A stretch of DNA of 64,000 bases, taken from the IMG/VR virus record IMGVR_UViG_2706794662_000007. One strand, given 5' to 3'. The notes below the pieces were generated by a model, which had not been told where the DNA came from, searched no databases, and saw nothing but the letters and a program-made list of their open reading frames with translations. The stretch is from a virus. Its lineage: Duplodnaviria > Heunggongvirae > Uroviricota > Caudoviricetes. How positions within the stretch are numbered: position 1 is the first letter of the stretch; each line of letters starts with the position of its first letter. The translations under genes and the position numbers were made by a program. Shown here piece by piece: positions 18-62,539 of the stretch.

Positions 18-365
18 TTACGCGAATATCGCAAGGAAGTCCTGAACGTCCCAATGCTGGACGAGGTGAAGATAGACCTTAGAAATCACGTCATTTTCGC
101 TATCGCATGTGAAGTAGTACTTCTGGCTGCGGTTGTATGTGTCCACACAAAATTCGCTCATATCCATAAAGTCAGCATCTTCACCCATGTCGCAAATCAT
201 CAAAGCAGGTGCGTCATCACGAGTCATCAGCTCCAGCACCCATCTTGAATTAATCAGAGTGGAAGACCAACCTTCCAGCTCATAAAACTGGTCAAACTCT
301 TTTTGAGTCAATTTCTTAATTTGGTTGATGTCGATATTTGCAAACATAAAGCAATCCTTAAACAT
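18..365 (-). CDS. hypothetical acidic protein (start uncertain: ATG at 365 or 347)
   Basis: ORF track 18..413 begins at TTG; in-frame ATGs at 365 and 347, the latter with AAGGA 9 nt upstream; D/E-rich, no recognisable motif. Confidence 0.35.
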   Translation of the reverse strand: MFKDCFMFANIDINQIKKLTQKEFDQFYELEGWSSTLINSRWVLELMTRDDAPALMICDMGEDADFMDMSEFCVDTYNRSQKYYFTCDSENDVISKVYLHLVQHWDVQDFLAIFA

Positions 366-485: not shown

Positions 486-704
486 TTAATCTTGGTCGTC
501 CGGGAACTCGCTGTGTACCGCGCCCACCAGCTCCCGCTTTTCATCTTCACTCAGCAGGTGCCAGATATCCTTCCCTTTGGGCGATTCCCCTTCTGCCGGG
601 ACGAACGACCACAACTTGCGGTACAACTCCGGCCCCACTGCATCCAGACACTCAGCCAGGGAATCCACGCCCCACACCTCAACCGTCACAGGCATCTTAA
701 TCAT
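486..704 (-). CDS. hypothetical small protein
   Basis: 72-aa ORF, ATG start preceded by GAGGA. Confidence 0.35.
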   Translation of the reverse strand: MIKMPVTVEVWGVDSLAECLDAVGPELYRKLWSFVPAEGESPKGKDIWHLLSEDEKRELVGAVHSEFPDDQD

Positions 705-1019
705 CTCTTCATCCTCACTTCGTTTCTATAACGTCTAAATATGCTGTTTACTTGTTGGTGTTATTATCGCAATAAGATAAAGGCGAAAAAGGATTTTATG
801 TCGGGAAAGCCAGGCTGGGCAGTGAATATCCGGGAACGACACGAGAGCCAGTATTTACGATATTCTGCTCTACGCGCGCCGCGGGGCTGGTGGGTAGAAT
901 AATCCTCTCCCCGAAAACCTACTGAAATCGATTGTGACCCGCTGGCTGTCTGGCACAATTACGCTGTATCTGGCATTCAGAGGGAATCCAGCGGTAAGCA
1001 AGTCAGCCTGCACGTGAGC

Positions 1020-2270
1020 GCCTCTCTTCTTCCCGCACATTACAGGTGGGTAGCTGCAACTCTCTCTCTCTCGCTATACCGGTACGCCGCCGTTCCAGAA
1101 CCGGCATCGAGCCTTTTCCCGAAATCCACACAGGCAACTCGACCGTTTCCCTGAAAATCCCCAGCCGTTCCCCCGAAGGCAACCCAGCCGTTTCTGTAGC
1201 TGGATGCAACCTTTTCCCTGTATGGACCGAAGGCTGACCGTAGGGGGTGTTACGGGGGATAAAATCAGGAGTTGAATAAATACGAAAAAGGAGGCGACCC
1301 CCCTCCTTCCCTCTCCACTTATACATACCTGGCTTCTTCGCTATACATGTTGTGTTTTATCTGTCTCAACCTCTCTATAGGCGTTAATGCTCACTCCTTC
1401 CAGAATGTTCTATACGGCGACTATTTCTGTTGGTGAATTGGGTGTGTTGTTTTCTCTGTCGGTGTATGTGGTTTCGTTAGTTTTGCGGTGGTTCTTCTAT
1501 GGGGGTGTTCTCGTCGTTTTGGTGATTGTTCTTCTCCGTGTATGGAGTAATGGCAGGTGGGCGATTGCTTTCGTTATTGTGTTTGAGTTGTTTGTCTGGA
1601 GTGTGTGAAGGCTTTTGTAGTTATTCGTGTATTGGGTAATGGCGTTTCCCGTGATTGTTATGTTTCGTGTCTTTTGGGATTGAGAGAAACCTTGCGGTTA
1701 CAGGCTTCGTTAGGGTTTCAGCGGTTCAGGTGTTTCTTCGCTGTTTGGGTAATGGCGTGTCGTGGGTATCGCGCGTATGAATGTTTTCGGATTGCCTGTG
1801 AAAGTTAGGTTGGTTGTCCGGTAGCCTGGGGAGAAGAGGTGGGTCTTTTCGGTAGCCTGCCATAAAGAGGTTGGTTGTTTTGGGTAATGGCATATGTGTT
1901 ATTTGGTTGTTTTGTTATGCCTGAAAATAAGTTGTTTATATGGTTGTGTAACGCAACGGGAGCGATTTTGAGCGTGTGTTTTTGTTGGTAGTGTGTTGAG
2001 TCGTCTGTGGTGAAATTTGGACGCTGTGGCGCTATCTGCTGCGTAGAATTACGGGTATAAGAAGTGATGTGTGATAACGTCAATTTTTTAGACCAAATCG
2101 GGAGAAAGCGTTGATGTTTCGTTGATCTGTTATTTAGTTGTTTTCTTATTGGTATAAACAACCATAACCTATTGATATTTAATGATGTGATTGCTGGTAT
2201 GGGAGGGTAGTAGTGGCGATCAACGGGTTCTTATAGAAAAGAATCAAATTGTGACCGCCATTATCAACGG
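1020..2270. other. ORF-poor, strand-skewed non-coding region with direct repeats (candidate packaging site, origin or ncRNA locus)
   Basis: no convincing ORF; top strand almost A-free (G+T rich) across ~1380-2100; TGGGTAATGGC-like 11-mer at 1544, 1633, 1746, 1881; CCGTT(T)CC motif at 1088, 1142, 1164, 1186. Confidence 0.5.
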
Positions 2271-2275
2271 TTTGA

Positions 2276-2461
2276 TTAGATGAGATGGTCTAATTCATCA
2301 TCTATCATGGCTTTGACGCTGGAGTCGTTCACTCCATATTTATTTATGAGCTGTTTCAGCTCTGTCGAAAACTGAAGGTAGATATCGTGAGCGTTTTTCA
2401 CTGTAGGTTCAACGCCACTCATTTCAAGCGCCTTTAGTAGATATGAGTCTTCTTTAAGCAT
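2276..2461 (-). CDS. hypothetical small protein
   Basis: 61-aa ORF in phage-like context. Confidence 0.3.
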   Translation of the reverse strand: MLKEDSYLLKALEMSGVEPTVKNAHDIYLQFSTELKQLINKYGVNDSSVKAMIDDELDHLI

Positions 2462-2497
2462 AAATTCTCCGTTATCTAGTATGAAGCGATTGCCGGA

Positions 2498-2797
2498 TTA
2501 CCATTGCCAGCACTCAAGCCCTTCAACGACCGGTGCGCCACAATCAAAATGTACAGAGTTAAAGCCTACATCAAGTACTTTCTGAATGTTCGCAATCGCA
2601 CCCTCGGATATACCATATCGACGCAACTCATCTTTCCAGTCATCGTCCTGTAACCCGGCGTGGACAATGCAACCGTACTCAATTTGTGAAACCCAATCCA
2701 GCTCATTGCTTGCGATCATGAATCGGCGAGCATCTTCCTCTGATGTATGAGATGAACTGATCAATGCCACCTGGTAGGCTTGGGTAATGTTCAACAT
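2498..2797 (-). CDS. hypothetical protein
   Basis: 99-aa ORF, ATG at 2797, palindromic motif AAAACAAGTTGTTTT 13 nt upstream. Confidence 0.45.
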   Translation of the reverse strand: MLNITQAYQVALISSSHTSEEDARRFMIASNELDWVSQIEYGCIVHAGLQDDDWKDELRRYGISEGAIANIQKVLDVGFNSVHFDCGAPVVEGLECWQW

Positions 2798-2809
2798 TTC
2801 AACTACTCC

Positions 2810-2875
2810 AAAACAAGTTGTTTTCTTATGTGGCTTATTATCTCAATCAACAAAAGGTAGAAAACAAATTGTTTT
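2810..2875 (-). promoter_or_regulatory. two copies of palindromic motif AAAACAA-N1-TTGTTTT (2810-2824 and 2861-2875), candidate operator/promoter
   Basis: perfect 7-bp inverted arms; same motif recurs upstream of many minus-strand genes. Confidence 0.5.
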
Positions 2876-2909
2876 AGGGCTTGTGTAAATCAGGAGGGAT
2901 TGTGTCTAT

Positions 2910-2938
2910 ATGAAAATGCCCGGCGTGTTGCCGGGCAT
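2910..2938 (-). terminator. rho-independent terminator downstream of metG
   Basis: GC hairpin ATGCCCGGC/GCCGGGCAT followed by T-run in minus sense. Confidence 0.7.
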
Positions 2939-2958
2939 TGCGAAGAGAGGTTGTTTAA

Positions 2959-4897
2959 TTACTTAACCTGGTGGCCAGGTTTAGCACCAGCATCCGGGCT
3001 TAACAGGAAGATATCTTTCCCGCCAGGACCGGCAGCCATCACCATGCCTTCAGAGATACCGAAGCGCATTTTACGTGGTGCCAGGTTAGCCACCATAATG
3101 GTGTGACGACCAATCAGTGCCTGTGGATCTGGATAAGCGGAACGGATGCCTGAGAAGACATTACGCTTTTCACCACCGAGATCCAGCGTCAGGCGAAGCA
3201 GTTTGTCAGAACCTTCGACAAACTCCGCGTTTTCAATCAGCGCCACACGCAGGTCAACTTTGGCGAAGTCGTCAAAGGTGATGGTTTCCTGAATCGGTTC
3301 GTCAGCCAGTGGGCCAGTTACCGGTGCAGCTGTGGCTTTCACTTCTTCTTTGGATGCTTCCACCAGTGCTTCCACCTGTTTCATATCGATACGGTTATAC
3401 AGTGCCTTGAACGGATTCACTTTATGGCCCAGAAGCGGTTGCTGGATACCATCCCAGGTCAGTTCTGTATTCAGGAATGCTTCTGCACGTTCAGTCAGTT
3501 TCGGCAGTACCGGTTTCAGGTACGTCATCAGCACGCGGAACAGGTTAATGCCCATAGAGCAAATCGCCTGCAGATCTGCATCGCGACCTTCCTGCTTCGC
3601 CACCACCCACGGAGCCTGTTCATCGACATAGCGATTAGCCAGGTCAGCCAATGCCATGATTTCACGGATAGCTTTACCAAATTCGCGGCTTTCCCATGCT
3701 TCGCCAATCACTTCAGCGGCATCAGTAAAGGTTTTGTACAGTTGCGGGTCAGCCAGTTCGCTTGTCAGCACGCCGTCAAAACGCTTGTTGATAAAGCCTG
3801 CATTACGGGAGGCCAGGTTAACCACTTTGTTCACGATATCGGCATTCACGCGCTGAACGAAATCTTCCAGGTTGAGATCGATATCATCAATGCGCGAAGA
3901 GAGTTTCGCAGTGTAGTAGTAACGCAGGCTGTCAGCGTCAAAATGATTCAGCCAGGTGCTGGCTTTAATAAAGGTGCCGCGAGACTTGGACATCTTCGCG
4001 CCGTTCACCGTCACATAGCCGTGAACAAACAGGTTGGTCGGCTTGCGGAAGTTGCTGCCTTCCAGCATGGCAGGCCAGAACAGACTGTGGAAGTAAACGA
4101 TATCTTTGCCGATGAAGTGGTACAGCTCGGCGGTGGAGTCTTTCTTCCAGTATTCGTCGAAGCTTACGCTGTCGCCGCGCTTGTCGCACAGATTCTTGAA
4201 AGAACCCATGTAGCCAATCGGCGCGTCCAGCCAGACGTAGAAATATTTGCCCGGCGCGTTCGNNNNNNNNNNNNNNNNNNNNNNNNNNNNNNNNNNNNNN
4301 NNNNNNNNNNNNNNNNNNNNNNNNNNNNNNNNNNNNNNNNNNNNNNNNNNNNNNNNNNNNNNNNNNNNNNNNNNNNNNNNNNNNNNNNNNNNNNNNNNNN
4401 NNNNNNNNNNNNNNNNNNNNNNNNNNNNNNNNNNNNNNNNNNNNNNNNNNNNNNNNNNNNNNNNNNNNNNNNNNNNNNNNNNNNNNNNNNNNNNNNNNNN
4501 NNNNNNNNNNNNNNNNNNNNNNNNNNNNNNNNNNNNNNNNNNNNNNNNNNNNNNNNNNNNNNNNNNNNNNNNNNNNNNNNNNNNNNNNNNNCTCTTCGCT
4601 GTGCGTCGAGTGATAGTTGTCATAGCTGATGTTAAAGCCTGCGAAATCAGTCTGATGTTCCTGACTCATTTCGCCAATCATCTGTTCCGGTGTGATACCA
4701 AGCTGCTGTGCTTTCAGCATGATTGGCGTACCGTGGGCATCGTCGGCACAGATGAAATTAACCTCGTGGCCGCGCATTCGCTGGTAACGAACCCAGACAT
4801 CAGCCTGGATGTGCTCCAGCATATGGCCGAGGTGGATTGAGCCGTTAGCGTACGGCAGCGCGCACGTCACCAGAATTTTCTTCGCGACTTGGGTCAT
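2959..4897 (-). CDS. metG: methionyl-tRNA synthetase (interrupted by N-run 4263-4591)
   Basis: N-terminus [29 protein letters not shown] (HIGH motif) and C-terminus ...GAKPGHQVK match enterobacterial MetG as recalled; KMSKS present; ~140 residues hidden in the gap. Confidence 0.95.
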
Positions 4898-5054
4898 AGT
4901 AGGCATTACTTCTTTGTAGTGAAAAGGGGCTTGATAGTAACAAAATGGCCTTATGTCTGCCATGTGATAACAGCATTTCTCATAAATGATTAAATGTCGT
5001 AGCTGGAGTACACTACAAGGCGACAATTGCGCAAATTAAAATAAAGGAGACGGG

Positions 5055-6155
5055 ATGAGCGAGTCCAAATCGCCGGATGCCCTGAGAGCAATGGTAGCCG
5101 GTACGCTGGCTAATTTTCAGCACCCAACCCTGAAACACAACTTGACTACGCTTAAAGCGTTACACCATGTTGCGTTGATGGATGACACACTGCATGTCGA
5201 ACTAATCATGCCTTTCGTGTGGAATAAGCCTTTTGAAGACCTGAAAGAGCAATGTAGTGGTGATCTGCTCCGTATCACTGGCGCAAAGGCTATTGACTGG
5301 AAGCTGTCGTACAACATTGCCACGCTTAAGCGCGTCAAAAACCAACCAGGCATTAATGGCGTTAAGAACATTATCGCCGTCAGCTCAGGCAAGGGCGGCG
5401 TGGGTAAATCCTCCACAGCAGTAAACTTGGCACTGGCTTTGGCTGCTGAAGGTGCGAAAGTTGGTATTTTGGATGCCGATATCTATGGTCCATCAATTCC
5501 AACCATGCTGGGCGCGGAAAACCAACGTCCAACCTCACCGGACGGTACTCACATGGCACCTATCATGTCTCATGGCCTGGCAACCAACTCTATTGGTTAT
5601 CTGGTCACCGATGACAATGCAATGGTGTGGCGTGGACCGATGGCGAGCAAGGCGCTGATGCAGATGTTGCAGGAAACACTGTGGCCTGATCTGGACTATC
5701 TCGTTCTCGATATGCCACCGGGCACTGGTGATATTCAATTGACGCTGGCGCAGAACATTCCTGTAACTGGTGCGGTTGTGGTAACTACGCCGCAAGACAT
5801 CGCGCTGATCGATGCGAAGAAAGGCATTGTGATGTTCGAAAAAGTCGAAGTGCCGGTACTGGGTATCGTTGAAAACATGAGTGTGCATATTTGCAGTAAC
5901 TGCGGTCATCACGAGCCAATTTTTGGCACCGGTGGAGCACAGAAACTGGCCGAGAAATACAACACGCAGTTGTTAGGCCAAATGCCACTTCATATCTCTC
6001 TTCGTGAAGATCTGGATAACGGAACACCAACCGTTATTAGTCGTCCAGATAGCGAATTTACGGCTATTTATCGTGACCTCGCAGATCGCGTTGCTGCCCA
6101 AATGTATTGGCAAGGTGAAGTAATACCTGGCGAAATCGCATTCCGCGCAGTGTGA
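5055..6155 (+). CDS. apbC: Fe-S cluster carrier ATPase ApbC/Mrp
   Basis: 366 aa, P-loop GKGGVGKSS, CxxC near C-terminus, near-identical to E. coli Mrp as recalled; divergent from metG as on the chromosome. Confidence 0.95.
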   Translation: MSESKSPDALRAMVAGTLANFQHPTLKHNLTTLKALHHVALMDDTLHVELIMPFVWNKPFEDLKEQCSGDLLRITGAKAIDWKLSYNIATLKRVKNQPGINGVKNIIAVSSGKGGVGKSSTAVNLALALAAEGAKVGILDADIYGPSIPTMLGAENQRPTSPDGTHMAPIMSHGLATNSIGYLVTDDNAMVWRGPMASKALMQMLQETLWPDLDYLVLDMPPGTGDIQLTLAQNIPVTGAVVVTTPQDIALIDAKKGIVMFEKVEVPVLGIVENMSVHICSNCGHHEPIFGTGGAQKLAEKYNTQLLGQMPLHISLREDLDNGTPTVISRPDSEFTAIYRDLADRVAAQMYWQGEVIPGEIAFRAV

Positions 6156-6767: not shown

Positions 6768-7286
6768 CTAAAAATCAAANNNNNNNNNNNNNNNNNNNNN
6801 NNNNNNNNNNNNNNNNNNNNNNNNNNNNNNNNNNNNNNNNNNNNNNNNNNNNNNNNNNNNNNNNNNNNNNNNNNNNNNNNNNNNNNNNNNNNNNNNNNNN
6901 NNNNNNNNNNNNNNNNNNNNNNNNNNNNNNNNNNNNNNNNNNNNNNNNNNNNNNNNNNNNNNNNNNNNNNNNNNNNNNNNNNNNNNNNNNNNNNNNNNNN
7001 NNNNNNNNNNNNNNNNNNNNNNNNNNNNNNNNTTTAAAGGAAGATAGGTTCCCCATAGTAGCTGTCTGCCGTGCGCTCGTGTGAAATACCGGGCCATCTT
7101 CGGATTGCTATGCTGCTTAGGAGCGCCTGGTCTGTATGTCTGATACCCGGCCAACATCCCATCAAACCTGTATAGAGGGAATGTAACAACTCCTTCGCTT
7201 TCATCGATCCACTGTCTATATGGATGCACATCATAGCGGTAGTTACGAGTTAGCAAATGAGCTTCCAGCTTTCCAAATTTAGTCAT
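6768..7286 (-). CDS. hypothetical protein, C-terminal part masked by N-run
   Basis: ATG at 7286 with GAGGGA SD; ORF runs into N-run 6780-7032, so the end is unreliable. Confidence 0.3.
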   Translation of the reverse strand: MTKFGKLEAHLLTRNYRYDVHPYRQWIDESEGVVTFPLYRFDGMLAGYQTYRPGAPKQHSNPKMARYFTRAHGRQLLWGTYLPLXXXXXXXXXXXXXXXXXXXXXXXXXXXXXXXXXXXXXXXXXXXXXXXXXXXXXXXXXXXXXXXXXXXXXXXXXXXXXXXXXXXXXFDF

Positions 7287-9338: not shown

Positions 9339-9611
9339 TTAACCCGCAGTGCNNNNNNNNNNNNNNNNNNNNNNNNNNNNNNNNNNNNNNNNNNNNNNNN
9401 NNNNNNNNNNNNNNNNNNNNNNNNNNNNNNNNNNNNNNNNNNNNNNNNNNNNNNNNNNNNNNNNNNNNNNNNNNNNNNNNNNNNNNNNNNNNNNNNNNNN
9501 NNNNNNNNNNNNNNNNNNNNNNNNNNNNNNNNNNNNNNNNNNNNNNNNNNNNNNNNNNNNNNNNNNNNNNNNNNNNNNNNNNNNNNNNNNNNNNNNNNNN
9601 NNAGTTGCCAT
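9339..9611 (-). CDS. hypothetical protein almost fully masked by N-run
   Basis: ATG at 9611 (MAT...) behind conserved junction GGAGAGTGATATG; body is N. Confidence 0.25.
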   Translation of the reverse strand: MATXXXXXXXXXXXXXXXXXXXXXXXXXXXXXXXXXXXXXXXXXXXXXXXXXXXXXXXXXXXXXXXXXXXXXXXXXXXXXXXXXXXXTAG

Positions 9612-31135: not shown

Positions 31136-33058
31136 AGCTGCGCCCCTCTTTAACTTCCAGCGTAATAGTTTCCCGGAACCATGACTTCATCTCTTTATGG
31201 GAGATAATCAGCACAGTACCTCGCTCGCGAGCTTTGGACTCCAGAATACCCATGAGGCGTTCAAGACCGGCTGTATCGAGTGCATCGTCAATTTCGTCGC
31301 CGATAAACAAATCGATGTTTTTACTCGCCCGGTTACTAACCAGATCCTGCAATGCCAAAGAACACGCAATGCGAACCTTCCGCTTCTCACCACCAGAGAG
31401 GGTCTGGAACGACTTACTTGAACCTTTCTTCTGCACACTAATGTTGAATTTGTCGCGATACTCACCTTTTTTGGTGACATCCATCGTCGACCACTCAGCA
31501 GTAATATTCCCGTCAGACAACGTATTGAGATACTCGGCAGTGCGTGTATTCAGGAAAGGCGTAACAGACGTCAAAATATGAGAACGCACCCCGGCAGGAG
31601 AGTAGACCTGACGAGCTTTTTCCAATAGCAACGTTTGTTCCTGAATAGCCTTCAACTCATCTTTTAAGGACTTGAAGGTAGACTTACTGGATACCAGGTT
31701 ATCTTCGTGTCTGGCGATAAGAGCAATAAACGGATTAATCTCTTTTGATATACGATCGACCTCAGTACGAGCACGAGTCACAAGAGACTCAATAGCAACA
31801 ATCTCCTTCTCACGATGACGCAAAGATGAGAGTTGTTTCGTAAGCTCTTCAATCCGGGCAATGATAGCCGTTACATCAGGTGTCGTTTTAACAAGGGCAG
31901 ACTCAATGCTTAACGCTTTCTCAAGATTCGTTTTGTGTTTAGCCATTGCCTCTGCAAGTGTCTTCGCCTGACCAATTTCCTGACGTGCTTGTTCAATGAA
32001 ATTCTCCTTCACCGTTGATAGATCTTCTTCGCAGTAGGCTTTGCCACAAGTAGGGCATGGTGATCCCACTTTAGTACCAACCTCTTCTGCTTTGGTCTTA
32101 AAATTACGCGCGCGGTTCATTGCATCAGCCTGACTATTTTCTGTAGCTTTGATGCTTGCCCGAATATCAGTTATCGCACCACGAACNNNNNNNNNNNNNN
32201 NNNNNNNNNNNNNNNNNNNNNNNNNNNNNNNNNNNNNNNNNNNNNNNNNNNNNNNNNNNNNNNNNNNNNNNNNNNNNNNNNNNNNNNNNNNNNNNNNNNN
32301 NNNNNNNNNNNNNNNNNNNNNNNNNNNNNNNNNNNNNNNNNNNNNNNNNNNNNNNNNNNNNNNNNNNNNNNNNNNNNNNNNNNNNNNNNNNNNNNNNNNN
32401 NNNNNNNNNNNNNNNNNNNNNNNNNNNNNNNNNNNNNNNNNNNNNNNNNGATTGTCGACTCCAATTTGGTTTTAACCACATCCATACGTGCGGCAGCTGC
32501 ATTAGCTCGCTCACGAGCAATAGCGTAGGCGCGTGTCAGTCTGTCAACGCCAGCGGCTTCTTCTACGATGGTTTTGAGGTTTTTGTCGGACATTCCAGGT
32601 AAATCTGGCATAGCTTCTTGGCTCGCATAGATGGAAGCCATGAAAACCTCTTTAGATGCACCGATCAGACGCTCGACGAACTCTTGCGTCAGCGCATCTT
32701 TGCCTTTCGTCATATCGCCGTCTTCACCACGAACGATAAGCCGATTTTTGAACTCTTTGTGTTTACGGTGACGAATGATCGCATATCTCTTGCCTTCATC
32801 CTCGATGGTTACTGCAACACGACAGTTCTTTTCATGGTCGGTAGACAACACATCGTCACCCTTCACACCATGAGCTGTTTCGCCATAAAGACACCACATC
32901 AGGCTATTCATTAGCGTTGACTTTCCAGAGCCATTACTTGATGCGGAACTATCATCACTATTAACACCCTGAATGAGCACTAAACCACGCTGATCTAACT
33001 CGACCTCCGCGCTGGCGATAGCCATAAAATTCTCAACCTGGAGCTTTAAAAACTTCAT
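31125..33058 (-). CDS. sbcC: SbcC/Rad50-like ATPase (interrupted by N-run 32187-32449)
   Basis: N-terminal Walker A GSGKST; C-terminal signature LSGGE and Walker B DEIDDALD; coiled-coil middle. Confidence 0.75.
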
Positions 33059-35431: not shown

Positions 35432-35472
35432 GCTGTAAGCCGCGCCACGACTGGTCTGAAGTCATGTTCATG

Positions 35473-35573
35473 TATGCTGTCAGCGGTAATTGATAGTCTG
35501 TCAGCGGTTCACCGTATGCTGCCAACTGTTTTTGGTATTCTGTCAGCGGCAAATCAAGTATGCTGTCAGCGGT
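35473..35573. repeat. upstream iteron array: five 15-bp repeats TATGCTGTCAGCGGT at 21-22 bp spacing
   Basis: copies at 35473, 35494, 35515 (degenerate), 35537, 35559; overlaps repA promoter region. Confidence 0.8.
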
Positions 35574-35593
35574 TGAATGACAAAGGTGTCCAC

Positions 35594-36688
35594 ATGTCCA
35601 CAAAAAATAAAAAAGGTAAAAATAACAAAGAAGTAGAAGATAACATCGACAACTTTGAAGAAGGTTCCCTTGAATTGTACACAGGGGAACTTGTCCCTAA
35701 TAGCAACAATACAGTCCAACCAATTGCGTTGATGCGACTGGGGTTGTTCGTCCCCACGCTTAAGGGAACAAAATACAGTAAACGTAACAAGCCAAATGAG
35801 ATCGATGCTTCAAAGGAGCTTGTCCAGCTCGAAGTAGCCCGTTCTGAAGGCTATTCCGATATCAAGATAACCGGTCCTCGTCTCGACATGGATCATGATT
35901 TCAAAACGTGGGTGGGCGTTGTGCGTTCGCTGGCAGAATACGGCGAACCTAACGGTCGTGTCGAGTTAAGCATCACGAAATTTGCTAAGTTTTGTGGCTA
36001 TCCATCGTCACAGATCCGCAAAACACTCCGCGACCGGCTTACAAACAGTCTTTTGAAGATCATGCGTACAACTCTGTCTTTCCAGAGAACGTATGAAGAA
36101 AAGAACGTCGACGGCTCTAACAAGATCTCGCTTCTGATGGTGCACCTCATCAATAGCGTGGACTACAACGAGCAGAAAGATACGGTGGTGTTCTATGCAG
36201 AACCGAAGCTGGCCGAACTATATCGCTTTGACCATAAGGTTCTTTTGCAGTTAAAGGTTATCAATAAGCTACCACGCAAAGAAACAGCACAGGCTCTGTA
36301 CACCTTCATCGAAAGTCTTCCAACCAAGCCTGCGCCGGTATCGCTTGCTCGATTGCGTGCGCGACTCAATTTGAGTAGCAGGAATGTCAGCTCGCAGAAT
36401 CAGACTATACGTAACGGCTTAAAAGCTCTCCAAGATTTGGGCTATCTCGAATACAGCGAGATTAAGCGTGGGCGGTCGATCTATATCCAGATTCACAGCC
36501 GCAATCCAAAACTCAAAGTCGCACCGCCAAAACCTGAAGACATCGAACCCAAAAAACCAGATGAGAAAGCTGGGGAAATTGATGCCAAACAGAACATTAT
36601 CAACAAGATAACCGAACTTTCGCAGAATTTGACGCCTGAAAATATCAAGATGATTGAGATCCTTTCCAATAGTCTCAAACTGCTTTGA
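35594..36688 (+). CDS. repA: plasmid replication initiator RepA (P1 RepA-like)
   Basis: MSTKNKKG start; NSNNTVQPIALMRLGLFVP, DIKITGPRLDMD, ALYTFIESLP, HSRNPKLK resemble P1 RepA as recalled; flanked by iterons on both sides. Confidence 0.8.
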   Translation: MSTKNKKGKNNKEVEDNIDNFEEGSLELYTGELVPNSNNTVQPIALMRLGLFVPTLKGTKYSKRNKPNEIDASKELVQLEVARSEGYSDIKITGPRLDMDHDFKTWVGVVRSLAEYGEPNGRVELSITKFAKFCGYPSSQIRKTLRDRLTNSLLKIMRTTLSFQRTYEEKNVDGSNKISLLMVHLINSVDYNEQKDTVVFYAEPKLAELYRFDHKVLLQLKVINKLPRKETAQALYTFIESLPTKPAPVSLARLRARLNLSSRNVSSQNQTIRNGLKALQDLGYLEYSEIKRGRSIYIQIHSRNPKLKVAPPKPEDIEPKKPDEKAGEIDAKQNIINKITELSQNLTPENIKMIEILSNSLKLL

Positions 36689-37220
36689 TATGCTGTCAGC
36701 GGTGAAATGTATGCTATCAGCGGCTATTTTTCTGAAAAGTATGCTGTGAACGGTTAAAGATATGCTACCAGCGGTATAGTGAGATGAACGTATGCTGTGA
36801 GCGGTAAATCATCTATCACCACTCAATGCTCTGTCATACCTCCCCAGTGGTTACTAACCTCGAAGAGTGCATTCCATATAGGTTTGCGCTCACTAACATT
36901 CTATTGCTATTGCGCTGATTGCTTGTAGTGAAAGGCATTTATTGCCTGCTACTCCCTGATAGAACGTATGCTGTCAGCGGTGTTTTATTGAGGAATTTTT
37001 GTTTGGATATGCTATCAGCGGTAATTAATGGCATATGTCAGACATTCGTATGCTGCCAGCGGTAATTTTGTTCTGGTTATACCCATACCGGTACACATTA
37101 TTCATGCAATGTCTTAAGTATGCTGTCAGCGGTAAAAAATCGAGTAAAGTATGCTGTGAGCGGTGAGATAGACTCTCGATATGCTATCAGCGGTAGTTGA
37201 TTGTGTATGCTGTCAGCGGT
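36689..37220. repeat. downstream iteron arrays: 12 copies of TATGCT(G/A)(T/C)(C/G)AGCGG(T/C) in two clusters (incA-like)
   Basis: copies at 36689, 36710, 36740, 36761, 36791, 36967, 37008, 37049, 37119, 37150, 37180, 37206. Confidence 0.8.
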
Positions 37221-37267
37221 GACGACTATGAAATATGACTGCGGAACGTGCCGCAGTCAGTTTGCAT

Positions 37268-42093: not shown

Positions 42094-43184
42094 TTACTCT
42101 TCTACTGACTCGGTGGGGTTGTCTTTTGCTCTTCGGTCGTCGATTGCCTGCAAAGCCGCAATGATTTCAGCCAGTGGCTTCTCCCGATACATCTCGACGA
42201 TCTGCGATTTGGTGTATTTCTTGTCACCAATTTCAACTCGCCCGCTGGCGTTCTTTGGCAGGTATCCTTCTTCCAGCATGTACTCGACGAGCGATTCGAT
42301 AACGTCGAGGCCACGAGTAGGATCGAAGTAGAATTTCCAGGTGCATTTGCCATACGGTGGTGCAACTTTGTTTTTGATGCATTCTGCGCCTACGTCCTGG
42401 CCGATCTTCTCTTTACCATCCTTCATCACCGATGCACCAAGACGGATACGTACAGAAGCGTAGAACTTCGGTGAATCTCCACCTGGAGACGTAGTAGGGT
42501 CGCCAAACATTACACCGATTTTTGTGCGAACCTGATTCAAGAAGATGATGCAGGCGTTGTATTTGCGTGCCCACAAAGCCAGAGTAGGGAAGTTCGCACT
42601 TGTCGCACGAGCCAGTGCCGTATTGTCGTTCATGTTTAGCTGATCTTTGTCTTTGGCAGTGCCTTCAGCCATCTTTTCGAACTTCTCGGCTTTGGAGTTC
42701 GGAACCATAGACGCAAGTGAGTCAGCCACGATACAGATAGGTGCTGATTCAGGAATAAGCTCTTCATCACGTACCAATTTAAGAATTGTGCCGATCAACT
42801 CTACAGAGTCTTCGAAGGTATCAGGCTGCTTGTATACCCACTGACCGTCATCCTCATCTGCATTCAAACCATTGGCTACAGCCAGGCCAACGTCAAAACT
42901 GTTCTCATGATCGAGGANNNNNNNNNNNNNNNNNNNNNNNNNNNNNNNNNNNNNNNNNNNNNNNNNNNNNNNNNNNNNNNNNNNNNNNNNNNNNNNNNNN
43001 NNNNNNNNNNNNNNNNNNNNNNNNNNNNNNNNNNNNNNNNNNNNNNNNNNNNNNNNNNNNNNNNNNNNNNNNNNNNNNNNNNNNNNNNNNNNNNNNNNNN
43101 NNNNNNNNNNNNNNNNNNNNNNNNNNNNNNNNNNNNNNNNNNNNNNNNNNNNNNNNNNNNNNNNNNNNNNNNNNNTTTTGCCAT
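42094..43184 (-). CDS. RecA-like recombinase (interrupted by N-run 42918-43175)
   Basis: IIFLNQVRTKIGVMFGDPTTSPGG...FYASVRIRL matches the RecA core; ATG at 43184 with AAGGAG SD. Confidence 0.75.
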
Positions 43185-58265: not shown

Positions 58266-58341
58266 TGGTGCCGATTAACGGGATCGAACCGATGACCATT
58301 CGCTTACAAAGCGACTGCTCTACCAACTGAGCTAAATCGGC
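58266..58341 (-). tRNA. tRNA-Thr (anticodon UGU)
   Basis: acceptor GCCGATT/AATCGGC, D-arm TAGCTCAGTTGGTAGAGCA, anticodon loop TTTGTAA, T-loop TTCGATC, encoded CCA. Confidence 0.8.
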
Positions 58342-58345
58342 AATT

Positions 58346-58432
58346 TGGTGGGGAGTGATAGAGTCGAACCACCCGAGTCGCAATGACAGTAGATTTACAG
58401 TCTACCCCGCTACCTCTACGGACTAACTCCCC
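58346..58432 (-). tRNA. tRNA-Tyr (anticodon GUA), type II
   Basis: acceptor GGGGAGT/ACTCCCC, anticodon arm GTAGA-CTGTAAA-TCTAC, long variable arm, encoded CCA. Confidence 0.8.
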
Positions 58433-58437
58433 TAAAT

Positions 58438-58512
58438 TGGCGATGGTGGGTGGATTCGAACCACCGACCAATTGGTTAACAGCCAACTGCTCTACCGCTG
58501 AGCTACACCATC
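58438..58512 (-). tRNA. tRNA-Asn (anticodon GUU)
   Basis: perfect 7-bp acceptor GATGGTG/CACCATC, anticodon loop CTGTTAA, T-arm GGTGG-TTCGAAT-CCACC, encoded CCA; differs from E. coli tRNA-Asn as recalled. Confidence 0.85.
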
Positions 58513-61242: not shown

Positions 61243-62539
61243 TGTTGTTTTACCTCCATATGTTGATCGATTTGCTCATGTGTTTCTTTTGTTGTTTCTT
61301 CAAGCAACGCCGCATACACGTCAGTGATCGCTGTTTGTGATGTGGTGCTCTTCTTAACCATGCTATTAATCGTTACACTGTCACGTTTTCGTTTTAAAGT
61401 TCTGGCTTGTTTATTCCGTTCTTCAACCTCCTTAATGAGCGCGGTCATATCTTCGAAATACAGAGATTCTCCTTTACGAATCTCTTCAACCATCATTTTT
61501 AACGCCTTGCATTTGCCTGCTTTGATAGCGGTTGCGCACGACTGGAATGAAGTTCGAGGAAGACGGTTTTCTTTGAAGGCAAGAATGGTGTGCTGGCAAA
61601 CGGAGTAGCTGCAATATGCCGACTCACCGTTTATNNNNNNNNNNNNNNNNNNNNNNNNNNNNNNNNNNNNNNNNNNNNNNNNNNNNNNNNNNNNNNNNNN
61701 NNNNNNNNNNNNNNNNNNNNNNNNNNNNNNNNNNNNNNNNNNNNNNNNNNNNNNNNNNNNNNNNNNNNNNNNNNNNNNNNNNNNNNNNNNNNNNNNNNNN
61801 NNNNNNNNNNNNNNNNNNNNNNNNNNNNNNNNNNNNNNNNNNNNNNNNNNNNNNNNNNNNNNNNNNNNNNNNNNNNNNNNNNNNTAGCAATCCTGACCAC
61901 CTTCCAAGCAAATTCCGCCATTACGCCATCACATGCCTTCCCAGCATCAATAACGATATGCACCAGATCCAACTGGCTTTTGCACATGTCGCAAAGAGAC
62001 GCATACTCACTCTCTCTGATTACATTTACGGCATCATTAGCCCCTTTATTAAGCAAGACTTCCAACAGATTTTTCGGGGTAACGAAATCTGCTTTCAGAG
62101 ATAATGTCTTTTCACCACTTATCGAACGCAAGTACTCTTCGTAGTTATTCTTCATCAAACCGCTGCTGCGCATTGCTAGAACTGCTTCTTGAATGGCCGC
62201 TTCAATAGTTTCGTCGTTTGAAAGACAAAAAACGGTATTTGTGTAGATCACTCTGCCATCAAGCCATGCTCCAACCTGCACTTTAAGACTGAGCGGGTTT
62301 TCTTTGCTAATAAAAACAACTAATGCAGAACGTCGTGCACAAGAAGGTTCACCCCATACGTGTAACTTAACCTTCAGATAAGGTAGCCCCGGTAGCGGGA
62401 TCTCGACCAAACGAGTGGCGATATGATCCATTGCTGTTTTTACCGCTTTTTCAATGATGTCTAGTCGATTGCTCTCGCTGATTTCTAAACCAGTTTTATC
62501 AATGATGTCGCAGGCTAATTTCTGAATTTCGTCTTTCAT
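61239..62539 (-). CDS. hypothetical replication-associated protein (interrupted by N-run 61635-61884)
   Basis: two ORF pieces either side of the gap, between primase and ligase; frame continuity cannot be verified. Confidence 0.35.

Follow-up and report, generated by a model that had tools for sequence, protein, structure and literature searches.

The DNA considered here is a 64,000-nucleotide stretch of a Caudoviricetes record (IMG/VR IMGVR_UViG_2706794662_000007), referred to below as the window, the whole of which is, judged from its sequence, an SSU5/pHCM2-type phage-plasmid. Near its left end lies a conserved non-coding block of 1.57 kb (positions 705–2275, assigned to neither strand). 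This block is most likely a cis-acting control region, placed where variable cargo genes meet a conserved operon of small genes. It combines a strand composition found nowhere else in the window with a gene-sense transcript that barely folds, with arrays of conserved direct repeats and, in the lysogen of a relative, with a drop in RNA signal. We tentatively favour the reading that the block is a zone of termination and insulation that loads Rho and has arrays of protein-binding sites on either side, which we hold to be possible rather than probable; the competing readings are weighed below against the evidence that bears on each of them.

The block contains no gene

The block fills the gap between two open reading frames (ORFs) on the minus strand, 486–704 and 2276–2461. 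A sequence-only reading of this DNA had pointed to an ORF-poor region at 1020–2270, which lies inside the block but cuts off the left 300 bp of the non-coding sequence. Its statement that no credible ORF is present was borne out by every test made. The PGAP annotation of a 95%-identical relative calls nothing inside the block, and the short ORFs that other annotators place there disagree among themselves in strand and position. In an alignment of nine sequences of the block the substitutions show no codon periodicity (p = 0.85), each sequence pair differs by 3–12 frameshifting indels, and no ORF is common to the aligned homologues; a Pfam search of every ORF in the block gave no match. A protein-coding gene was rejected on these grounds. 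The long stop-free stretches on the C/A-rich strand arise because that strand lacks T and G. A CRISPR array was also rejected, as the repeats described below are degenerate and spaced 41–144 bp apart, compared with the identical repeats and regular 55–75 bp period of such arrays. The genome is otherwise tightly packed, as had been stated and as the gene maps of relatives confirm.

Strand composition of the core

The skewed core of the block (1390–2100, with the minus strand as gene sense) has 71% G+T on its plus strand. The top strand across about 1380–2100 had been described as almost devoid of A. The skew is indeed extreme, but A is not absent: over 1380–2100 the plus strand contains 16.0% A, 12.9% C, 31.9% G and 39.3% T. 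A and C are about equally depleted, and the bias is therefore a G+T (keto) skew. It peaks at a G+T fraction of 0.74 in 500 bp, 8.2 standard deviations above the rest of the window; no 500-bp stretch elsewhere exceeds 0.59.

The gene-sense (minus-strand) transcript of 1390–2100 would consist of 39% A, 32% C, 13% G and 16% U. Its C/G ratio is 2.46, compared with a background of 0.91 ± 0.11 (maximum 1.22), and it exceeds 1.5 in every 78-nt window. The predicted folding energy is −0.134 kcal/nt, about half the background value of −0.285 ± 0.025, with 29% of the bases paired, and the 711 nt hold only six AUG, GUG or UUG codons. A G+T fraction of 0.66–0.73 is retained in every homologue. Since the spacers between the motifs have diverged and yet G+T has been kept, the constraint appears to be compositional and strand-specific, which points to a property of a single strand, either RNA or single-stranded DNA. 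Two further features were considered and set aside: an excess of G↔T substitutions, as a sign of compositional selection, was uninformative after allowing for base composition, and the 10.2-bp peak in the helical phasing of T- and G-tracts in the window was within background and was not reproduced in the homologues.

Repeat families and other motifs

The conserved motifs of the block fall into families that we label F1 to F4. At its left end, a promoter/operator-like module of the downstream small gene (735–800, minus strand) carries a palindrome-type F1 motif, AAACAnnTTGTTT...TTATTATC, and a conserved candidate −10 element, TAAAAT, at about 793–798; the F1 motif is found again shortly before many other minus-strand genes. 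A candidate sigma-70-like promoter that points rightwards into the block (932–959, plus strand; TTGTGA-16-CACAAT) is conserved in eight of nine homologues. It is followed by the iteron-like F2 array (1084–1225, plus strand), six direct repeats of CC(G/T)TTTCCC lying 22–31 bp apart, mostly 22–23 bp or about two helical turns. The four CCGTT(T)CC elements reported earlier at 1088–1195 are all present, at 1090, 1143, 1165 and 1188, and two CCTTTTCCC variants complete the six units. To the right of the array, an intrinsic-terminator-like hairpin on the minus strand (1284–1309; GGAGG-N7-CCTCC and then a U-run) is strong in the window lineage and in Klebsiella and weak in the SSU5 clade.

The core itself holds the F3 and F4 families, both on the plus strand. 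F3 (TTCTTCTCCGTGTATGGAGTAATGGC) comprises four copies of 26–30 nt in the window, at 1527–1554, 1616–1643, 1729–1756 and, in a shorter form, 1872–1891; there are six copies in the SSU5 clade, and the spacing ranges over 41–144 bp. An 11-mer had been said to recur here four times at intervals of 89–135 bp. The exact 11-mer, TGGGTAATGGC, in fact occurs three times (1633, 1746 and 1881), with the variant TGGAGTAATGGC at 1544, and it is the 8-mer core GTAATGGC that recurs four times at these intervals (1547, 1636, 1749 and 1884, with spacings of 89, 113 and 135 bp). By chance, the window would be expected to hold about 0.03 copies of the 11-mer. F4 (1787–1880) consists of three tandem 31-nt units, CGGTAGCCTG-N6-AGAGGTGGGT, whose core is similar to the RfaH ops element; all relatives share an invariant third unit, and some have four units. 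Both F2 and F4 have a second conserved site 3–4 kb to the left in an E. coli plasmid and in SSU5, the second F2 array being the smaller one and lying about 3.5 kb further left in relatives.

The right module (1900–2275, no strand assigned) begins with F1-like motifs on the plus strand, GTTGTTTTGTTAT and the palindrome AAAATAAGTTGTTTAT (1906–1943), and has another at 2125–2165. It also contains a conserved candidate promoter directed leftwards into the core (2054–2083, minus strand; TTGACG-18-TATACC) and six TCAACG/CGTTGA half-sites, at 2078, 2109, 2120, 2220, 2264 and 2270. The sequence-only reading is supported in its general idea of a non-coding, cis-acting element that carries recognition sites in several copies.

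Conservation and the cargo junction

The block is kept at full length, in the same place and in the same orientation, in every genus examined, and it can be aligned across relatives from Escherichia, Shigella, Salmonella, Enterobacter, Klebsiella, Cronobacter, Kluyvera and Buttiauxella. Shigella sonnei plasmid LR213459.1 (108 kb) is 100% identical to window positions 700–2300, E. coli plasmids of about 110 kb are 90–97% identical over the block, and Salmonella phage SSU5 and the phage-plasmids of Salmonella, Enterobacter, Klebsiella and Cronobacter are about 68–75% identical to it. Among 5426 complete E. coli genomes the block was present in 245, plasmid-borne every time and never chromosomal; 839 database plasmids carry it, and 59 contigs matched in a scan of viral contigs. 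It was also found in contigs of Kluyvera and Buttiauxella, which, together with one contig of a metagenome-assembled genome, were the only genuine occurrences in a genome scan with an 18-nt motif. The other matches to this motif in species genomes appeared unrelated and were discarded, many of them being conserved enterobacterial sequence without the features of the block.

Between clades, the motif cores are 0.81–0.93 identical, compared with 0.51–0.64 for the spacers of the core. The motifs and the strand composition are both maintained, and the spacer sequence is not. Over its whole length the block is 68–70% identical between the window clade and the SSU5 clade, compared with 88–89% for the third codon positions of the adjacent gene, and the constraint outside the motifs is therefore weak. 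We attribute the greater divergence of the block to mosaic histories, because one E. coli plasmid is recombinant within it. The same divergence, together with the poorly conserved spacers, could be taken to mean that the block has no present function and is decayed, duplicated sequence kept between useful parts. We find this hard to credit, given that length, place and orientation are retained in every genus, that the motif cores are so much better conserved than the spacers, that the skew is kept in all lineages despite their divergence and that there is so little idle sequence elsewhere in the genome.

The left flank of the block, made up of small genes, is conserved, and its right flank carries a different cargo in each lineage: metG with DUF5983 (the E. 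coli/Shigella type), IS1 with an autotransporter, a GIY-YIG nuclease, DUF1380 or Ivy. The junction between the block and this variable cargo is sharp and falls near 2267. Most E. coli relatives have a 730-bp cassette at precisely this point (4596–5330 in relative L002), bounded by direct 9-bp repeats of CCATTATCA, an arrangement suggestive of insertion by transposition or by a site-specific mechanism; the cassette holds an ORF of 186 amino acids whose translation looks hydrophobic by eye. Large Klebsiella IncFIB plasmids (180–340 kb) contain a 775-bp piece of the block that is 93% identical to the Klebsiella phage-plasmid and ends at the same junction, which we take as evidence of exchange between phage-plasmids and large plasmids. 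In the two plasmids examined (L007, 5717–6477; L008, 5727–6490) this piece lies upstream of a DUF262 gene, and a type I restriction-modification system follows in one of them. Finally, an IS2 element is inserted in the right module of NZ_CP104844.1 (L198, about 1862–3191), at the equivalent of window position 2231 or thereabouts. Since this 112-kb plasmid is otherwise complete, the site seems to tolerate disruption in the plasmid state, as judged from this single case.

A possible Rho-loading termination and insulator zone

A Rho-loading (rut) site is an untranslated, C-rich, G-poor and unstructured stretch of RNA. As the gene-sense RNA of the core is untranslatable, barely folded, C-rich and G-poor, it fits this description, and untranslated, unstructured RNA with more C than G runs through the core on the gene sense for at least the 70–80 nt that Rho loading takes. 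The block shares these features with known Rho terminators and rut sites, for instance lambda tR1 and those involved in the Rho silencing of prophage and foreign genes, and like them it lies downstream of expressed genes and loses RNA signal within its length. This loss is seen in RNA-seq data for E. coli LF82 lysogens of the relative Cyrano. The cargo gene abutting the block, CYRAN_102, has log2 values of 5.6–9.2, compared with 2.3–4.3 for CYRAN_103 (equivalent to window 1805–2161), where the floor is 2.32, and 2.6–4.7 for CYRAN_104 (equivalent to window 919–1326); CYRAN_105, the next gene downstream of the block, again reaches 7.8 (PMC9928086, supplementary table). CYRAN_105 corresponds to window 18–364, because Cyrano has no counterpart of the ORF at 486–704.

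From this we infer a direction of transcription through the core, a dependence on Rho and a role for the repeats. Transcription that starts in the cargo genes, or at repressible promoters of the right module, would run into the block, where the transcripts would lose their ribosome cover, load Rho and terminate, with the intrinsic terminator at 1309–1284 as a possible back-up in the window lineage. The downstream small-gene operon would hence be insulated and would be driven solely by its own promoter/operator at 735–800. The F2, F3, F4 and TCAACG sites would be putative targets of phage-plasmid or host proteins by which this control is tuned.

Several points weigh against such a termination zone. 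The Cyrano data cover lysogens only and may not be strand-specific. RNA is at the floor already 110–470 nt past the end of the cargo gene, so that Rho is not separated from some other stop within the right module. Since an intrinsic terminator of 40 bp would suffice, 700 bp and four conserved repeat families exceed the needs of insulation, and the block is about ten times longer than the usual rut site. Rho terminators are usually poorly conserved in sequence, whereas the F3 and F4 repeats of this block keep the identity given above across genera. The recurrence of F2 and F4 at a second site 3–4 kb away looks like protein binding at the DNA level. Moreover, the conserved candidate promoter at 932–959 points in the opposite direction.

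A possible lytic origin or single-stranded element

R-loops prime replication at phage T4 oriF/oriG and in ColE1, and satellite phage P4 has a cis replication region (crr). The main rival reading, which we consider possible albeit somewhat unlikely, is that the phage-plasmid uses the block as its origin of lytic replication. On induction the right-module promoters would fire and the untranslated, unstructured transcript would remain paired with its G/T-rich template as an R-loop; the displaced, unstructured strand would serve for helicase loading, F2, F3 and F4 would bind an initiator or loader, and the second F2/F4 site would be crr-like. Such an origin and a Rho-loading insulator are not mutually exclusive, and it is established that the properties of untranslated nascent RNA that favour Rho favour R-loops too. 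The several direct-repeat arrays in a single orientation, the two-turn spacing of F2, the second conserved array a few kilobases away and the candidate promoters directed into the block all recall iteron-type or transcription-primed origins (P4 ori/crr, T4 oriF/oriG, ColE1 and lambda ori). The element encodes a T4/T5-like set of replication and recombination genes, the block is silent in the Cyrano lysogens, and no lytic origin has been described for the SSU5-type family in the literature searched.

A lytic origin had been among the proposals of the sequence-only reading, and the several arrays of direct repeats fit one; a number of other observations speak against it. No DnaA box of the type TTATCCACA was found in the block with one mismatch allowed. 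Its richest 40-bp A+T stretch reaches 77.5%, and does so only within 2122–2193, so there is no strongly AT-rich unwinding element. Neither GATC clusters nor IHF sites were detected in the block, GATC being depleted and one weak IHF match lying at the right edge. A DnaA-dependent origin was rejected for want of boxes and of a marked AT-rich element. The block also contains no RepA iterons. These have a different sequence, GTATGCTGTCAGCGGT, and number at least 15 at 35450–35590 and 36688–37230, some 33 kb away, flanking repA (35474–36688); we take them to be the plasmid-mode origin and control array, and a RepA origin in the block was rejected accordingly. No recognisable initiator gene stands beside the block: its neighbours belong to no Pfam family, and in Pfam and PHROG searches all of the small proteins there were of unknown function. 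Cumulated over the whole plasmid, GC skew runs monotonically and carries no origin signal. Finally, G makes up just 32% of the plus strand, and the RNA of a gene-sense R-loop would be C/A-rich, not G-rich.

A broader version of this idea, which we rate as unlikely, is that the core is a cis element acting through a single-stranded state. The 700-bp compositional track would then keep either the gene-sense transcript or a displaced DNA strand unpaired, and F3 and F4 would recruit a protein of the phage-plasmid. If this were true, the block might be a lytic origin primed by an R-loop, or a signal for DNA entry or recombination akin to the unexplained repeat region of phage T5, and would represent a kind of origin or control element not described before, in a clinically widespread family.

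Possible packaging, DNA-entry or partition sites

The arrays could also form another kind of DNA-level site read by a phage-plasmid protein, be it a partition centromere, a packaging-initiation site or terminal-repeat boundary, or a T5-like DNA-entry signal; we doubt that they do. Phage T5 carries its injection stop signal in a repeat-rich region of 1662 bp, which is situated some 10 kb from the end of the genome and is more conserved than the variable coding sequences beside it (10.1101/866236). The block resembles this region in architecture. Both are non-coding and repeat-rich, measure about 1.6 kb, lie by variable genes and are some 10 kb from the terminase genes or the genome end, and the T5 DRD repeats likewise share one orientation and are irregularly spaced in a stretch with G far above C. 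The distance from the block to the terminase genes, where the SSU5 record starts, is about 11–13 kb, and the large terminase shares about 25% identity with its counterparts in T5-like phages. Genes for ParB-domain proteins to which no site has been assigned lie 8–10 kb from the block. On the other hand, the block has no sequence similarity to the T5 region, its skew is one of G+T and not just of G over C, and the paired DnaA boxes in large inverted repeats that mark the T5 injection stop region, itself part of a terminal repeat, were not found in it, on which ground a T5-type stop region was rejected. The SSU5 record may start where it does by convention, and not because the DNA physically ends there. 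A protein-binding array would also leave the strand-specific composition of the spacers unexplained, and a complete plasmid tolerates IS2 in the right module, in the one case known.

The terminase recognition site (pac/cos) put forward by the sequence-only reading is unlikely as well, because such sites normally adjoin the small terminase gene and the terminase genes are far from the block. The R sites of lambda cosB, to which gpNu1 binds, have the core CGTTTCC, and this heptamer is also found in the F2 repeats. However, the large terminase here is of the T4/Terminase_6 type and not of the lambda gpA type, and so short a match is probably due to chance. Nothing was found in the literature searched on the packaging, virion ends, origin or non-coding RNA of SSU5-type elements; a preprint on heteroresistance concerns a different phage-plasmid family.

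Readings based on a transcript of the block

The sequence-only reading had further suggested a structured non-coding RNA, which the results do not support. The gene-sense transcript of the core is exceptionally unstructured, and Rfam gave nothing in the block at gathering score, the best match at E ≤ 10 being far under its threshold. Consensus folding with alifold (eight homologues, 160-nt windows, both strands) found the core no better than column shuffles, with z between −1.5 and +1.2; only small local fold signals appeared, at 1860–2019 and 2180–2275 on the minus strand. The block might also encode a long non-coding RNA made in the lytic cycle, which would act in trans as a decoy or sponge that targets a host RNA-binding protein or a defence system. 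The strand-specific constraint, the repeated motifs, the candidate promoters at both ends and the terminator at 1309–1284 would all suit such an RNA. However, besides the lack of an Rfam match and of a conserved fold, Hfq-type (ARN)n motifs are not enriched (one observed, 1.0 ± 0.9 expected), the RNA signal is at the floor in lysogens, and F2 and F4 are found near promoters elsewhere too, consistent with binding at the DNA level. We therefore consider a trans-acting RNA very unlikely.

Transcription in the opposite direction brings the likeness of F4 to the RfaH ops element into play. The block could be a plus-strand leader, transcribed rightwards from 932–959, in which RNA polymerase would pause at CGGTAGCCTG and RfaH would be recruited, so that termination would be resisted. 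F4 units 2 and 3, two tandem copies of CGGTAGCCTG on the plus strand (at 1819 and 1850), match the ops sequence GGCGGTAGCGTG at 9 of 12 positions (3–9, 11 and 12), and thus contain the core C3–G8 with T11 and G12 on the non-template strand. Positions 3–8, 11 and 12 are the most important ones for RfaH recruitment and pausing; F4 departs from ops at positions 1, 2 and 10, and G2C is the only one of these three changes reported not to affect RfaH stimulation (PMC5995543). In addition, unit 3 is the invariant one, and a G-rich plus-strand RNA would not be a substrate for Rho. Yet there is no long co-oriented operon for such a leader to serve: no plus-strand genes lie downstream in the phage-plasmids, and the cargo is antisense to such a transcript. 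Unit 2 of the SSU5 clade carries G4T and G5A, changes that abolish RfaH recruitment (PMC5995543), and the lone extra F4 copy in SSU5 sits upstream of a promoter and not within a leader. Conservation moreover extends over an entire 26-nt unit, beyond the ops core. A function through RfaH is thus highly improbable, and we treat the likeness as a resemblance inside a longer unit that probably binds a protein.

Gene content of the phage-plasmid and further observations

The gene map of a close relative comprises a siphovirus structural module, a large DNA-metabolism module, RepA, tRNAs and a captured metG–apbC pair. Nearly all of the genes, including the neighbours of the block, are on the minus strand. 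The replication and recombination set referred to above consists of a gp32-like single-strand DNA-binding protein, RecA, an SbcCD-like nuclease, RNase HI, a DnaB-like helicase, a primase and DnaE, and is T4/T5-like. The first of these is annotated just as a 'regulator' in relative L009 (40579–41607) and matches Pfam gp32 with E = 2e-66. Its presence alongside RecA, the SbcCD-like pair, RNase HI and a 5′–3′ exonuclease points to what may be T4/T5-style recombination-dependent replication.

In the window, the chromosomal-type pair of metG (minus strand) and apbC/mrp (plus strand) is carried as cargo at 2959–6155, and three tRNA genes are clustered at 58269–58512 (minus strand). Seven N-masked runs of about 250–330 nt each (4263–4591, 6780–7032, 9353–9602, 13174–13428, 32187–32449, 42918–43175 and 61635–61884) interrupt genes, metG among them, and ORF lists across them are therefore unreliable. 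Immediately to the right of the block, the ORF at 2276–2461 (minus strand, 61 amino acids) had no match in the Pfam search; its counterpart in relative L001 has a sub-threshold match to the T7 gp5.9 RecBCD inhibitor (E = 0.006). The neighbouring ORF, 2498–2797, is a DUF5983 gene. Just left of the sequence covered by the window, L001 encodes at 422–943 a 173-residue protein of the FljA family, the repressor of phase-1 flagellin (E = 3e-70).

Two short motifs recur well beyond the block. The palindrome AAACAAGTTGTTTT(CTTAT), in plus orientation, is found at 366, 745, 2817, 16409, 17138, 27355 and 40894 of the window, close upstream of many minus-strand genes, and looks like a dispersed operator or 5′-leader element of small-gene promoters. 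A Chi octamer, GCTGGTGG, lies in the block at 886–893 (plus strand) and is kept in seven of nine aligned relatives. This octamer and those at window 470 and at L001 2963 and 3677 are situated within or beside the terminator hairpins of small genes. There are 14 Chi octamers in the window, about seven times the roughly 1.9 estimated for a random octamer. One E. coli plasmid showed a switch in Chi orientation that hinted at an origin or end, but SSU5 did not show it, and the marker was dropped.

Significance

The element is not described in the literature searched. In kind it is ordinary, a non-coding control or cis region of a mobile element; its size, the strength of its skew and its motif content are what is unusual about it. 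Phage-plasmids of the SSU5/pHCM2 type are common in clinical Enterobacteriaceae and carry resistance and cargo genes, and their lytic origin, packaging site and lysis–lysogeny wiring are not described in the same literature. The block is their largest conserved non-coding element and stands exactly at the junction where cargo is exchanged. Recognizing its role would keep annotators from making spurious gene calls in it and would offer a handle for engineering or curing these elements. Telling an insulator, an origin and an entry signal apart would explain how cargo genes are expressed in lysogens without the phage genes being switched on.

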